Sequence record: OK040907
Strand: one strand, 5' to 3'
Source of the DNA: Enterobacteria phage Ac3
DNA: 64,000 nucleotides
The notes beneath the pieces were generated by a model. That model saw nothing but the letters and a program-made list of their open reading frames with translations. It did not search any database and was not told where the DNA came from. The position numbers and the translations under genes are program-made. Below, one piece after another: positions 39,249-40,654 of this stretch; positions within the stretch are counted from its first letter, which is position 1, and every line of letters begins with the position of its first letter.

Positions 39249-39325
39249 TGGTCGAGACAGAAGGATTCTAACCTTCAACCTACGGATTAGAAGTCCGTTG
39301 CTCTATACAATTGAGCTATGCCTCG
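39249..39325 (-). tRNA. tRNA-Arg (anticodon UCU)
   Basis: Manual cloverleaf: acceptor CGAGGCA/TGTCTCG, D-arm GCTC/GAGC, anticodon loop CTTCTAA, CCA encoded. Confidence 0.8.
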
Positions 39326-39329
39326 TATT

Positions 39330-39404
39330 TGGCGGACATGCATGGATTCGAACCATGGACCAATTGATTAACAGTCAACTGCTCTACCACTGAGCTACAC
39401 ATCC
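39330..39404 (-). tRNA. tRNA-Asn (anticodon GUU)
   Basis: Manual cloverleaf: D-arm TAGCTCAGTGGTAGAGC, anticodon loop CTGTTAA, T-loop TTCGAAT, CCA encoded. Confidence 0.8.
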
Positions 39405-39408
39405 AAAT

Positions 39409-39495
39409 TGGTGGGGAGTGATGGAGTCGAACCACCCGAGTCGCAATGACAATGAATTTACAGTCCACACCGCTACCTCTACGGGATAACTCCCC
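39409..39495 (-). tRNA. tRNA-Tyr (anticodon GUA), type II with long variable arm
   Basis: Acceptor GGGGAGT/ACTCCCC, anticodon loop CTGTAAA, T-loop TTCGACT, CCA encoded; D-arm register slightly irregular. Confidence 0.65.
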
Positions 39496-39507
39496 TAATT
39501 CATAATT

Positions 39508-39582
39508 TGGTGGCCCTGGGTGGAATTGAACCACCATCTGGCGATTATGAGTCGCTTGCTTGAACCTTCCAGCTACAGGGCC
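39508..39582 (-). tRNA. tRNA with CAU anticodon (Ile2/Met)
   Basis: Acceptor GGCCCTG/CAGGGCC, anticodon loop CTCATAA, T-loop TTCAATT, CCA encoded. Confidence 0.8.
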
Positions 39583-39583
39583 T

Positions 39584-39659
39584 TGGTGCTGATTGACGGA
39601 ATCGAACCGCCGACCTTCTCATTACAAGTGAGTTGCTCTACCTACTGAGCTAAATCAGC
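39584..39659 (-). tRNA. tRNA-Thr (anticodon UGU)
   Basis: D-arm TAGCTCAGTAGGTAGAGC, anticodon loop CTTGTAA, T-loop TTCGATT, CCA encoded. Confidence 0.85.
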
Positions 39660-39664
39660 AAAAC

Positions 39665-39754
39665 TGGCGGAGGTGATAGGATTCGAACCTATGAATCGCC
39701 GGAGCGACTGCCGGTTTTCAAGACCGGTGCATTCAACCACTCTGCCACACCTCC
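39665..39754 (-). tRNA. tRNA-Ser (anticodon UGA), type II
   Basis: Acceptor GGAGGTG/CACCTCC, anticodon loop CTTGAAA, long variable arm, T-loop TTCGAAT, CCA encoded. Confidence 0.85.
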
Positions 39755-39760
39755 AAATAT

Positions 39761-40411
39761 TTATATATTGTTAATTTGATTTAGAATTCTTTTTGCTTGA
39801 GTATGACTTACGCCAATATGCTTAGCATATTTAGATAATTCACCACGCTTAGAAAAATCATATAATTTAGAAATTTCTATTCTTCTTTTTCTTTCATCCG
39901 CAGAAACTTTTGCTTCGTTTGCTTTTGCTATTTTACGTTTAGCTTCTTGAGAATGAGTTTTACCAGCAAAGCCATTCTTCATTAATCCATTTGAAGACCA
40001 TCCTTTTAATTTTCCGTTAGAATGTGCCTTTTTAACACCCAATGAAATTAATTCGCGCTGCTGATCTGTCATAGGATAATTATTTATATGATCCCATCCA
40101 CCTTCACCGCCAAGTTTTAAATTATACACATCTGGTCTATTTAAAAACTCTTCTGTAACAATATTTTTCTCGGCTTCAAGCATAGATTCTTTATCATCAA
40201 AATACTCTAATATTTCTTTAGAAAAATTTTCTATACCATATTTATCTTGGGCTCTTTTTAATAATTTACCAGAACCCATATATCCATCATCTAAATTTTC
40301 GGTAGAATGCACACCAATATAAATTTTATTATTAATTTTATTTGTTATTTTATAAAGATAAAAATGCATATCAGTCCCTAATAAAGAACTGAGCGTCTCA
40401 CGACGAGTCAT
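39761..40411 (-). CDS. segB: GIY-YIG homing endonuclease SegB-like
   Basis: 216 aa; FYLYKITNKINNKIYIGVH GIY-YIG motif; embedded inside the tRNA cluster. Confidence 0.8.
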   Translation of the reverse strand: MTRRETLSSLLGTDMHFYLYKITNKINNKIYIGVHSTENLDDGYMGSGKLLKRAQDKYGIENFSKEILEYFDDKESMLEAEKNIVTEEFLNRPDVYNLKLGGEGGWDHINNYPMTDQQRELISLGVKKAHSNGKLKGWSSNGLMKNGFAGKTHSQEAKRKIAKANEAKVSADERKRRIEISKLYDFSKRGELSKYAKHIGVSHTQAKRILNQINNI

Positions 40412-40414
40412 AAA

Positions 40415-40488
40415 TTGGAGCGGATAATGAGAATCGAACTCACATCATCAGATTGGAAGTCTGAGGTAATACCATTATACGATATCCG
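40415..40488 (-). tRNA. tRNA-Gly (anticodon UCC)
   Basis: Acceptor GCGGATA/TATCCGC, anticodon loop ACTTCCA, T-loop TTCGATT, CCA encoded. Confidence 0.85.
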
Positions 40489-40493
40489 CAAAT

Positions 40494-40580
40494 TTGGTGC
40501 GAGAAGTGGGACTCGAACCCACAAGGAAATCATTCCGCAGCATTTTAAGTGCTGTGCCTTTACCAATTTGACCATTCTCG
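40494..40580 (-). tRNA. tRNA-Leu (anticodon UAA), type II
   Basis: Acceptor GCGAGAA/TTCTCGC, anticodon loop CTTAAAA, long variable arm, T-loop TTCGAGT, CCA encoded. Confidence 0.85.
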
Positions 40581-40581
40581 C

Positions 40582-40654
40582 GCTGGGAATAAAGGACTCG
40601 AACCTTTGCATCCTGGAATCAAAATCCAGTGCCTTACCAACTTGGCTAATTCCC
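40582..40654 (-). tRNA. tRNA-Gln (anticodon UUG)
   Basis: Acceptor TGGGAAT/ATTCCCA, anticodon loop TTTTGAT, T-loop TTCGAGT; 1 nt from tRNA-Leu. Confidence 0.85.

Follow-up and report, generated by a model that had tools for sequence, protein, structure and literature searches.

The tRNA Region and Its Gene Content

The 64,000-nucleotide stretch of Enterobacteria phage Ac3 analysed here (sequence record OK040907; hereafter the window) contains a cluster of nine tRNA genes that is interrupted by seg, a SegB-like gene for a free-standing, GIY-YIG-type homing endonuclease. ARAGORN, applied to the whole 64-kb window, placed nine tRNA genes on the minus strand within positions 39249-40655 and found no tRNA gene outside this segment. 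Listed from the upstream end, with their scores against the Rfam tRNA model in parentheses, these are tRNA-Gln(UUG) at 40582-40655 (67.4 bits), the class II tRNA-Leu(UAA) at 40495-40581 (59.3 bits) and tRNA-Gly(UCC) at 40416-40489 (65.8 bits), followed beyond seg by the class II tRNA-Ser(UGA) with an encoded CCA at 39665-39754 (63.7 bits), tRNA-Thr(UGU) at 39584-39659 (72.9 bits), a tRNA with a CAU anticodon at 39508-39582 (59.9 bits) that ARAGORN calls Met by its anticodon and that is best read as tRNA-Ile2, the class II tRNA-Tyr(GUA) with a non-canonical D-arm at 39409-39495, tRNA-Asn(GUU) at 39330-39404 (72.6 bits) and tRNA-Arg(UCU) at 39249-39325 (71.1 bits). Adjacent tRNA genes are separated by gaps of 0-12 nt, and an open reading frame (ORF) of 609-651 nt, depending on the start codon, lies between tRNA-Gly and tRNA-Ser. 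This ORF contains seg, also on the minus strand, at 39761-40369 (202 aa).

The gathering score of the Rfam tRNA model RF00005 is 29 bits and was reached by eight of the nine genes (59.3-72.9 bits, E-values of 1e-10 to 1e-15), with tRNA-Tyr below it. Matches to the Rfam models sX4, Plastid-ycf2 and Plastid-psbI-rps4 were below their gathering scores and superimposed on the tRNA genes, and were therefore rejected as cross-matches. The original prediction for this DNA, based on manual folding, had named nine tRNAs with their anticodons, order and strand, and the ARAGORN list is identical to it. The spacers, put at 1-12 nt in that prediction, are short as claimed but measure 0-12 nt. The Tyr and Asn candidates, whose rejection by tRNA predictors would have refuted it by its own account, were both accepted by ARAGORN; Rfam accepted tRNA-Asn but left tRNA-Tyr under the threshold.

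Positions 39000-40900 are 100% identical to Enterobacteria phages RB51 (NC_012635/FJ839693) and RB68, and a position in the RB51 record minus 32000 gives the position in the window. We therefore use the name RB51 for the alleles of this locus. All nine tRNA genes are annotated in the RB51 GenBank record with the same anticodons, the CAU tRNA being entered as tRNA-Ile, and the seg ORF at 39761-40369 is labelled "truncated SegB-like protein" and homing endonuclease. In a 2010 survey of T4-related genomes, nine tRNAs were counted in RB51, eight in T4, nine in T2, seven in T6 and ten in both RB14 and RB18 (PMC2993671), and the presence of tRNA-Tyr, tRNA-Asn and the CAU tRNA in the same order corresponds to the arrangement in T2L published in 2008 (PMC2330249). 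Because of the identity to RB51, the GenBank annotation and the 2010 tabulation, the finding of the nine-tRNA cluster is a rediscovery: it is a known and annotated variant of the tRNA region of the T-even phages and no novel type of element. The genomic slot is conserved as well, with 57B, ip, trna.4, trna.3 and trna.2 as the annotated neighbours upstream and e.8 downstream in RB51, T4 and T2L.

The gene order is Gln-Leu-Gly-Pro-Ser-Thr-Ile-segB-Arg-rnaD-rnaC in T4 (NC_000866), Gln-Leu-Gly-Pro-Ser-(trna.1)-Met(CAU)-Tyr-Asn-Arg-(trna.2)-rnaD-rnaC in T2L (AJ880101) and Gln-Leu-Gly-"Thr"-CAU-Tyr-segB-Arg in T6. The contrast to T4 drawn in the original prediction is thus correct, in that tRNA-Pro is missing and tRNA-Tyr and tRNA-Asn are added relative to the T4 set. 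The repertoire that it described as remodelled does differ from that of T4 but is not new, given the annotation of RB51 and the T2L-type order published in 2008. A segment-by-segment BLAST analysis resolved the region into a mosaic. Positions 41100-40411 are 95-96% identical to T4, T6 and T2L, positions 39755-39563 with tRNA-Ser, tRNA-Thr and the start of the CAU tRNA are 93% identical to T4, and positions 39582-38537 with the CAU tRNA, tRNA-Tyr, tRNA-Asn, tRNA-Arg, a 116-aa ORF, rnaD and rnaC are 92% identical to T2L.

The value of the cluster as a discovery is low, since it is fully annotated and both the variation in the tRNA sets of the T-even phages and SegB homing in the tRNA region have been in print since 2008. 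The tracking of phage codon demand by phage tRNAs and the ability of a tRNA-Tyr to counter the Septu system have also been published already. The mosaic history of seg and its position in the tRNA-Pro slot, on the other hand, are fresh details inside a known kind of system. As far as we found, the seg mosaic and the exact replacement of tRNA-Pro are merely hinted at in database notes, such as "C-terminus divergent" in RB18.

Codon Demand and the tRNA Repertoire

The codons of 69 non-overlapping ORFs in the window (16,894 codons, 36% GC) were compared with those of 42 annotated genes in E. coli K-12 (14,748 codons, 52% GC), and 40 anticodon species were ranked by the phage/host ratio of the codons that they read. 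The nine tRNAs hold ranks 1-6, 8, 9 and 12 of the 40 (Mann-Whitney p = 7e-6). The first six are Arg(UCU) with a ratio of 9.6, Ile2 (5.3), Gly(UCC) (3.7), Ser(UGA) (3.5), Thr(UGU) (3.1) and Leu(UAA) (2.75), while Tyr (1.74), Asn (1.69) and Gln(UUG) (1.5) occupy ranks 8, 9 and 12. Tyr (1.74) and Asn (1.69) are also the most enriched amino acids in the phage ORFs, Lys (1.69) being tied with Asn. The tRNAs that are absent from RB51 rank lower, with Pro(UGG), which is present in T4, at rank 13 and His, which is present in relatives, at rank 29.

Since the nine tRNAs hold high demand ranks, codon compensation is strongly supported as an account of this tRNA set, including tRNA-Tyr and tRNA-Asn and excluding tRNA-Pro and tRNA-His. 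Compensation for the AT-rich codon usage had been one of two functions suggested in the original prediction, and the ranking explains this particular set unusually cleanly.

The other suggestion was that the tRNAs counter host anticodon nucleases, an idea that gains support for tRNA-Tyr only, and indirectly, from published work on T6 (Chihara et al., 2026; PMC13096335). Both Septu and retron-Eco7 cleave tRNA-Tyr, Septu in the variable loop; an extra T6 tRNA-Tyr rescues infection, deletion of the T6 tRNA region raises sensitivity, and T4, which has no tRNA-Tyr, is unable to escape (PMC13096335). The tRNA-Tyr gene in RB51 is identical to that in T6 at 86 of 87 positions, including the whole variable arm, and to that in T2L at 87 of 87, and relatives with ten tRNAs add tRNA-His. 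Colicin E5 targets four tRNAs of the queuosine type, and Tyr, Asn and His make up three of them. An alternative explanation is that the added tRNAs, chiefly tRNA-Tyr and possibly tRNA-Asn, are kept mainly as a counter-defence, in which they would replace, or act as decoys for, host tRNAs lost to immune nucleases such as Septu or the PtuAB effector of retron-Eco7, with codon supply as a secondary function. We regard this explanation as possible but rather unlikely. Both tRNA-Tyr and tRNA-Asn are already predicted by codon demand, nothing in the window indicates a specific nuclease, and Septu is reported to cleave the T6 tRNA-Tyr as well, the benefit of which comes by dosage only, after SegB-driven amplification or overexpression (PMC13096335). 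Because the tRNA-Tyr gene in RB51 is single-copy and not adjacent to seg, we treat a counter-nuclease function as a possible additional role and not as the main one.

A Mosaic seg Gene in the tRNA-Pro Slot

Two start codons are available for seg. The ATG at 40411, which would give a protein of 216 aa, was rejected, as only 4 nt separate it from tRNA-Gly and no ribosome-binding site precedes it. Translation most likely begins at the ATG at 40369, because an AGGGA motif is located 7 nt upstream of it and the proteins of T4, T6 and the Klebsiella phage KP13MC5-5 start at the equivalent methionine. The resulting gene of 202 codons is preceded by a leader of 46 nt on the minus strand (40370-40415), which begins directly after the CCA of tRNA-Gly. 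It differs by a single base from the leader between tRNA-Tyr and segB in T6 and is homologous to the leader between tRNA-Gly and seg in Klebsiella phages. Directly ahead of the ATG at 40369, the leader contains a hairpin, CUCAGUUC..GGGACUGA, that pairs the Shine-Dalgarno sequence AGGGA and parallels the hairpin over the ribosome-binding site described or proposed for T4 segB.

The protein has a GIY-YIG domain (Pfam PF01541, 26.8 bits against a cut-off of 22.6), a NUMOD3 match marginally under the cut-off and membership in the homing endonuclease family phrog_314 (E-value of 2e-54). Its KIYIGVH motif aligns with Y17 and G19 in T6 SegB, the residues whose mutation killed activity. BLASTP aligned only the N-terminal half with T4 SegB, at 97 identical residues of 117 aa. 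Codons 1-96 (approximately 40082-40369) correspond to the catalytic module of T4/T6 SegB, and together with the leader they are 97.7% identical to T6 segB at the nucleotide level. The identity to T4 is 98.9% over 40081-40355, with a synonymous divergence (dS) of 0.08, and the stretch of 98-99% nucleotide identity with T4/T6 segB is restricted to 40081-40411. The likeness stops abruptly after GGWDHIN, and neither BLASTP nor megablast detected similarity to T4 SegB past codon 96 or so.

Codons 97-202 (39761 to approximately 40081) encode a different DNA-binding module that is common to the seg genes of Klebsiella Jiaodavirus; these 106 C-terminal codons were found in about 55 Tequatrovirus records. 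In KP13MC5-5, a collinear seg gene of 202 aa is located between tRNA-Gly and tRNA-Pro, and its C-terminal half is 82% identical at the amino acid level. Against this gene, dS is 1.86 in the catalytic half and 0.37 in the binding half, which indicates that the two halves have different histories. A search against the sequences in the Protein Data Bank (PDB) gave no match at an E-value of 1 or less, and a single-sequence AlphaFold2 model was poor (mean pLDDT of 53), with confidence only for residues from about 160 to 200, where the last 40 residues form a three-helix unit. Judged by its sequence, the catalytic domain is orthologous to that of T4 SegB and the C-terminal half is not, so that seg reads as a domain-shuffled SegB variant in the tRNA-Pro slot that is predicted to be functional. 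The original prediction of segB in the array thus holds with regard to a GIY-YIG seg gene inside it, but the gene is not T4 segB, either by position or by its C-terminal half.

The position of the gene is equally distinctive. A segment of 80 nt in the T4/T2L allele, which comprises a 5-nt spacer and tRNA-Pro, has been swapped exactly for a seg cassette of 655 nt that runs from directly behind the CCA-ATTTA of tRNA-Gly to a point 6 nt short of tRNA-Ser. The gene is thereby placed between tRNA-Gly and tRNA-Ser, whereas segB in T4 and T6 is located directly upstream of tRNA-Arg. A search for a remnant of tRNA-Pro was negative: homology to T4 ends 5 nt after tRNA-Gly and restarts 1 nt before tRNA-Ser, and ARAGORN called no tRNA-Pro. 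In the phage collection, a contiguous Gly-Pro-Ser arrangement is present in about 448 records and Gly-seg-Ser in about 56, while in about 57 records the matches to the Gly and Ser parts are confined to two separated pieces; tRNA-Pro is lacking in all five seg-carrying phages inspected. These counts fit seg and tRNA-Pro as alternative alleles. If Seg resembles T4 SegB in cutting at the T-arm/CCAR end of tRNA genes and in homing during mixed infections, the start of its cassette behind CCA-ATTTA and the SegB core motif in seven of the nine tRNAs would be indirectly in line with this.

A comparable exchange was seen in Shigella phage CM8 (entry 2110-2718), where a gene for an HNH endonuclease occupies the tRNA-Gln slot and neither tRNA-Tyr nor tRNA-Asn is present. 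In the same array, a single tRNA gene has thus given way to a homing endonuclease of another kind.

We tentatively propose that Seg is a module-swapped SegB in which the leader and catalytic domain of the T4/T6 type have been joined to a binding domain of the Klebsiella-phage type, that it would home to the Gly/Pro junction and not to tRNA-Asn, and that homing would convert Gly-Pro-Ser into Gly-seg-Ser and thereby delete tRNA-Pro. Taken as a whole, this scheme is a reasonable candidate, albeit one to which we give somewhat less than even weight. The tRNA-Asn in RB51 retains all five bases that mark the preferred site of T4 SegB (G6, A16, G18, A26 and A27; site according to PMC2330249). An endonuclease that shared this preference would target its own genome, a weak argument that the specificity of Seg may differ from that of T4 SegB. 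If the scheme is true, a main force setting the tRNA content of the T-even phages would be the turnover of homing endonucleases whose binding domains have been shuffled, with codon demand acting as a filter on the results; Pro(UGG), at rank 13, is the least demanded tRNA in the T4 set. The target specificity of Seg, easily addressed by experiment, would show how homing endonucleases reshape the tRNA repertoires of phages.

A different role would be that of a domesticated driver that cuts in the array and triggers tandem amplification of tRNA genes under immune pressure, as T6 SegB has been shown to do (PMC13096335). The near-identity of the leader and catalytic module to T6 segB is in line with such a role, as is the purifying selection on Seg described below. 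A further point in its favour is the SegB core motif GGTTCRANTCC, of which the window has eight occurrences where chance would give 0.17, and all eight are inside the tRNA unit, in seven of the nine tRNAs and in rnaC. Yet the DNA-binding half is unlike that of T6 SegB, so that the targets may differ, the 3' half of the gene is likewise different, tRNA-Tyr is three genes away and no amplified copies are present in RB51. We consider it improbable that seg acts in this manner.

Comparisons of seg in RB51 with the genes in vB_Eco_EL (hereafter EL), RB18 and CM8 revealed seven to eight synonymous and no non-synonymous differences, a pattern with a chance of about 1e-5 under neutrality, given that about 19% of the sites are synonymous. 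The gene is under purifying selection and hence not the truncated relic implied by the GenBank label. That the ORF is a decaying and inactive SegB relic is very improbable: it is shorter than T4 SegB (202 against 221 aa), without similarity to it past residue 100 or so, marginal for NUMOD3 and without a PDB sequence match, but it has a fully collinear homologue of 202 aa in KP13MC5-5, a YIG motif and catalytic module near-identical to those of the active T4/T6 SegB, a confidently modelled three-helix unit at its end, and no amino acid replacement relative to EL, RB18 and CM8. For this gene, "truncated," "segD" and "location conserved in T4" are misleading labels in the databases, as what occupies the tRNA-Pro slot is, on our reading, a functional domain-shuffled SegB variant.

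Unusual tRNA Genes and tRNA Alleles

Of the nine tRNAs, tRNA-Tyr required the closest scrutiny. It gave no match to RF00005 at the gathering score, and its best match within the clan was to the tRNA-Sec model with 29.9 bits, for which the gathering score is 47 bits. The low score is explained by the non-canonical D-arm in combination with the long variable arm. A search of viral contigs with a pattern for the T-arm and acceptor end recovered 86 instances of the tRNA-Tyr family with 22 distinct sequences, including those in RB51, T6 and Mineola. Across the 22 sequences, 99.4% of the cells in the cloverleaf are paired, and double compensatory changes were observed at six pairs, three in the anticodon stem, two in the variable-arm stem and one in the T stem; the observed covariation values were reached in 0-1 of 500 shuffles.

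The canonical register of the D-stem in tRNA-Tyr was rejected, as only 59% of its cells pair and a C:C mismatch is present in 22 of the 22 variants. If the register is moved by two bases, the resulting stem (CCGU/GCGG) is 100% pairable, but invariant and hence uninformative for covariation, and leaves a variable connector of 4-5 nt behind the acceptor stem. The D-arm, which the original prediction had singled out for inspection, is thus unusual, yet the gene sits in a conserved and covarying family, by which criterion tRNA-Tyr appears as a credible gene. The T6 copy has been reported to be expressed and biologically active (PMC13096335).

The CAU tRNA is identical to the "tRNA-Met" of T2L at 75 of 75 positions and to tRNA-Ile of T4 at only 47 of 75. 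The same gene is labelled Ile in the RB51 and RB18 records and Met in the T2L record. Its best full-length matches in E. coli (5,423 genomes) are 81.6% identical over 75 nt and annotated as tRNA-Ile; such matches occur at a median of two places in each genome, and they put the body of the tRNA nearer to host ileX/ileY than to the Met tRNAs. The acceptor stem, GGCCCUG...CAGGGCC, provides the pairs C4-G69 and C5-G68, which are recognised by TilS. None of the initiator features were found: positions 1 and 72 are paired, and the anticodon stem is without GGG/CCC. Because its closest relatives in E. coli are annotated as tRNA-Ile, the gene is best read as a putative tRNA-Ile2 of the lysidine type that would decode AUA.

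The tRNA-Arg gene is unrelated in sequence to that in T4 (44/77) and matches that in T2L at 62 of 77 positions, but the allele is present at 98-100% identity in many Tequatrovirus records. We observed that its T-loop is UUAGAAU, with an A at the position of the normally invariant C56, and that GU replaces the usual G18-G19 in its D-loop, AAUUGUAUA. These changes may compensate each other in the form of a U19-A56 tertiary pair.

That tRNA-Tyr, tRNA-Arg or both are non-functional pseudogenes, so that the true repertoire is smaller than nine, is hardly credible: the Rfam score and the D-stem mismatch of tRNA-Tyr, the T-loop of tRNA-Arg with no GG in its D-loop, and the existence of a broken chimeric tRNA in a related phage (the "Thr" in T6) all point that way, but the Tyr family has double compensatory changes in three stems and an active member in T6 (PMC13096335), and tRNA-Arg scores 71 bits in Rfam, is conserved at 98-100% across many phages and could keep the 19-56 tertiary pair through its joint changes.

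The other alleles differ in their degree of conservation. Both tRNA-Leu (87/87) and tRNA-Gly (74/74) are identical to those in T4, T6 and T2L, tRNA-Ser matches that in T2L at 85 of 90 positions and tRNA-Thr that in T4 at 73 of 76. For tRNA-Gln, which matches T4 at 66 of 74 positions, all eight differences from T4, T6 and T2L are confined to the anticodon arm, where the stem is re-paired and the loop is UUUUGAU instead of CUUUGAC; the remaining gene is identical in these phages. This suggests that the anticodon arm has been exchanged or selected. Identity for tRNA-Asn is 63 of 75 with T2L and EL. The stem differences that separate the RB51 alleles of tRNA-Asn and tRNA-Arg from those in T2L and EL are compensated, and both alleles are found at 98-100% identity in other phages.

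Overlapping BLAST pieces against EL had suggested that tRNA-Asn in RB51 is an Asn/His hybrid formed by deletion of a tRNA-His cassette, but direct alignment rejected this, as it showed a complete Asn allele in RB51 and resolved the cassette as a clean 190-nt indel after CCAAA. In EL (entry 1826-2019) and RB18, the cassette consists of a 114-nt spacer and tRNA-His, directly behind the CCAAA of tRNA-Asn, and the CCAAA end of tRNA-Asn is the reported position of preferred cleavage by T4 SegB (PMC2330249).

A separate observation concerns T6, in which the annotated "tRNA-Thr" (entry 3009-3086) has a tRNA-Thr body but begins with the 5' end of tRNA-Pro (CTCCGTGTAGCTCAGT). Its acceptor stem is unable to pair and ARAGORN gives no call. 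The chimera looks like the product of a deletion between D-arm sequences common to tRNA-Pro and tRNA-Thr, which would have removed tRNA-Ser, and illustrates the way in which tRNA genes that recombine with each other may alter the repertoire.

The Predicted Transcription Unit and an Overall Model

Downstream of tRNA-Arg, on the same strand, is an annotated ORF of 116 aa (RB51ORF141) at 38880-39230, a homologue of T2L trna.2 that belongs to phrog_3355 of unknown function (E-value of 8e-54) and has no Pfam family. It is followed by homologues of rnaD (species 2 small stable RNA) at 38765-38883 and rnaC (species 1 small stable RNA) at 38620-38758, both on the minus strand and located by alignment with T4 and T2L, so that their ends are approximate. 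The segment 38880-38537 with these two genes is 94-97% identical to T4/T6, and within rnaC, positions 38632-38642 (GGTTCGAATCC) form a motif resembling the T-arm of a tRNA. Neither rnaD nor rnaC has an entry in the RB51 annotation table. A terminator scan identified an intrinsic terminator on the minus strand at 38546-38569, with a 10-bp stem of which seven pairs are GC, followed by TTTTT. It is conserved in T4 and T2L and probably marks where transcription of the tRNA unit stops; T4 transcription is reported to terminate behind species I RNA and to yield one polycistronic transcript, the promoter of which is located upstream of tRNA-Gln (PMC2330249). A scan for the sigma-70 consensus returned 13 sites against 9.6 expected, an excess at which the scan is uninformative.

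The terminator hairpin is duplicated, with copies of 36 nt at 37978-38013 and 38537-38572 that are 92% identical and flank an ORF of 157 aa (38018-38491). This ORF looks like an insertion bracketed by the repeated terminator, and the RB51 record notes an imperfect direct repeat of 34 bp at the same place.

By analogy with T4, one transcript would start upstream of tRNA-Gln, span the nine tRNAs, seg, the small ORF, rnaD and rnaC, and stop at 38546-38569, whereupon host RNases would cut it into mature RNAs. The phage tRNAs would supplement the host pool for AGA, AUA, GGA, UCA, ACA, UUA and CAA as well as for all Tyr and Asn codons, codons that the AT-rich phage (36% GC) uses far more than E. coli. 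The seg gene would be a selfish free-standing GIY-YIG homing endonuclease, carried as a cassette directly after the CCA of tRNA-Gly in the exact place of tRNA-Pro. The difference in repertoire from T4 would have arisen through the exchange of cassettes among T-even phages, by endonuclease-initiated recombination and by recombination between tRNA genes, and not through a new system. We are confident that the cluster is a T-even tRNA operon of the RB51 type, in which codon-supplying tRNAs are combined with a selfish seg gene and from which the T4 arrangement differs by cassette exchange. The identities of the genes, the synteny, the mosaic structure, the purifying selection on seg and the match to codon demand are observed in the sequences, and the T4 work suggests how the unit may be transcribed and processed, how and where the endonuclease may act and what benefit the tRNAs may bring.

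Several points weigh against this interpretation. The expression, processing and aminoacylation of the RB51 tRNAs are deduced from sequence and from the work on T4, T2L and T6. The tRNA-Tyr gene fails the Rfam threshold and its D-arm is non-canonical, and the T6 tRNA-Tyr has been reported to be relatively unstable (PMC13096335). The codon analysis used mechanically chosen phage ORFs and a host sample of 50 kb, unweighted by expression or tRNA abundance. One clear absentee is tRNA-Lys, which ranks 10th but is not encoded, so that codon demand alone does not fix the set. Finally, codon supply may not be the sole function, since a role linked to defence has been published for the near-identical tRNA-Tyr in T6.

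Comparison With the tRNA Regions of Related Phages

The layout resembles that of T2L (Brok-Volchanskaya et al., 2008; PMC2330249), with which RB51 shares the order Gln-Leu-Gly...Ser...CAU-Tyr-Asn-Arg followed by the 116-aa ORF, rnaD and rnaC, and tRNA-Leu, tRNA-Gly, the CAU tRNA and tRNA-Tyr that are 100% identical. Unlike RB51, T2L has kept tRNA-Pro, lacks tRNA-Thr and has no intact seg, and its tRNA-Asn (63/75) and tRNA-Arg (62/77) are of other alleles. Between tRNA-Ser and the CAU tRNA, T2L has instead the ORF trna.1 (entry 584-985, 133 aa), which resembles only the C-terminal domain of RB51 Seg, with 41% identity to the DNA-binding half and a shared family, phrog_16521. In all probability, trna.1 is what remains of a seg gene after loss of the nuclease domain.

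The array occupies the same slot as in T4, between the trna.2-4/ip genes and e.8, and the tRNAs for Gln, Leu, Gly, Ser and Thr, rnaD, rnaC and the terminator are common to both phages, as are a GIY-YIG seg gene within the array and a hairpin over its ribosome-binding site. T4 differs from RB51 in that tRNA-Pro is present, tRNA-Tyr and tRNA-Asn are absent and segB, which has another leader and another C-terminal half, is located between tRNA-Ile and tRNA-Arg, two genes that match their RB51 counterparts at only 47 of 75 and 44 of 77 positions. T6 (Chihara et al., 2026; PMC13096335) has nearly the same tRNA-Tyr (86/87) and the same leader and catalytic module of seg (97.7%), but its segB follows directly after tRNA-Tyr and has a C-terminal half of the T4 type, tRNA-Pro, tRNA-Ser and tRNA-Asn are absent, and the annotated tRNA-Thr is the Pro/Thr chimera.

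In Klebsiella Jiaodavirus (KP13MC5-5, Mineola), seg directly adjoins the 3' side of tRNA-Gly, as in RB51, and has a homologous leader, and tRNA-Gly and seg form one continuous stretch of 79% nucleotide identity. There, however, tRNA-Pro is retained downstream, with an overlap into the end of seg, divergence is far greater in the catalytic half than in the binding half (dS of 1.86 against 0.37), and the remaining tRNA array is unrelated in order and content. The Tequatrovirus phages with ten tRNAs (RB18, vB_Eco_EL, AR1 and others) have the arrangement Gly-seg-Ser-Thr-CAU-Tyr-Asn...Arg and an identical Seg protein, and are distinguished from RB51 by the 190-nt cassette of spacer and tRNA-His between tRNA-Asn and tRNA-Arg and by T2L-type alleles of these two genes.

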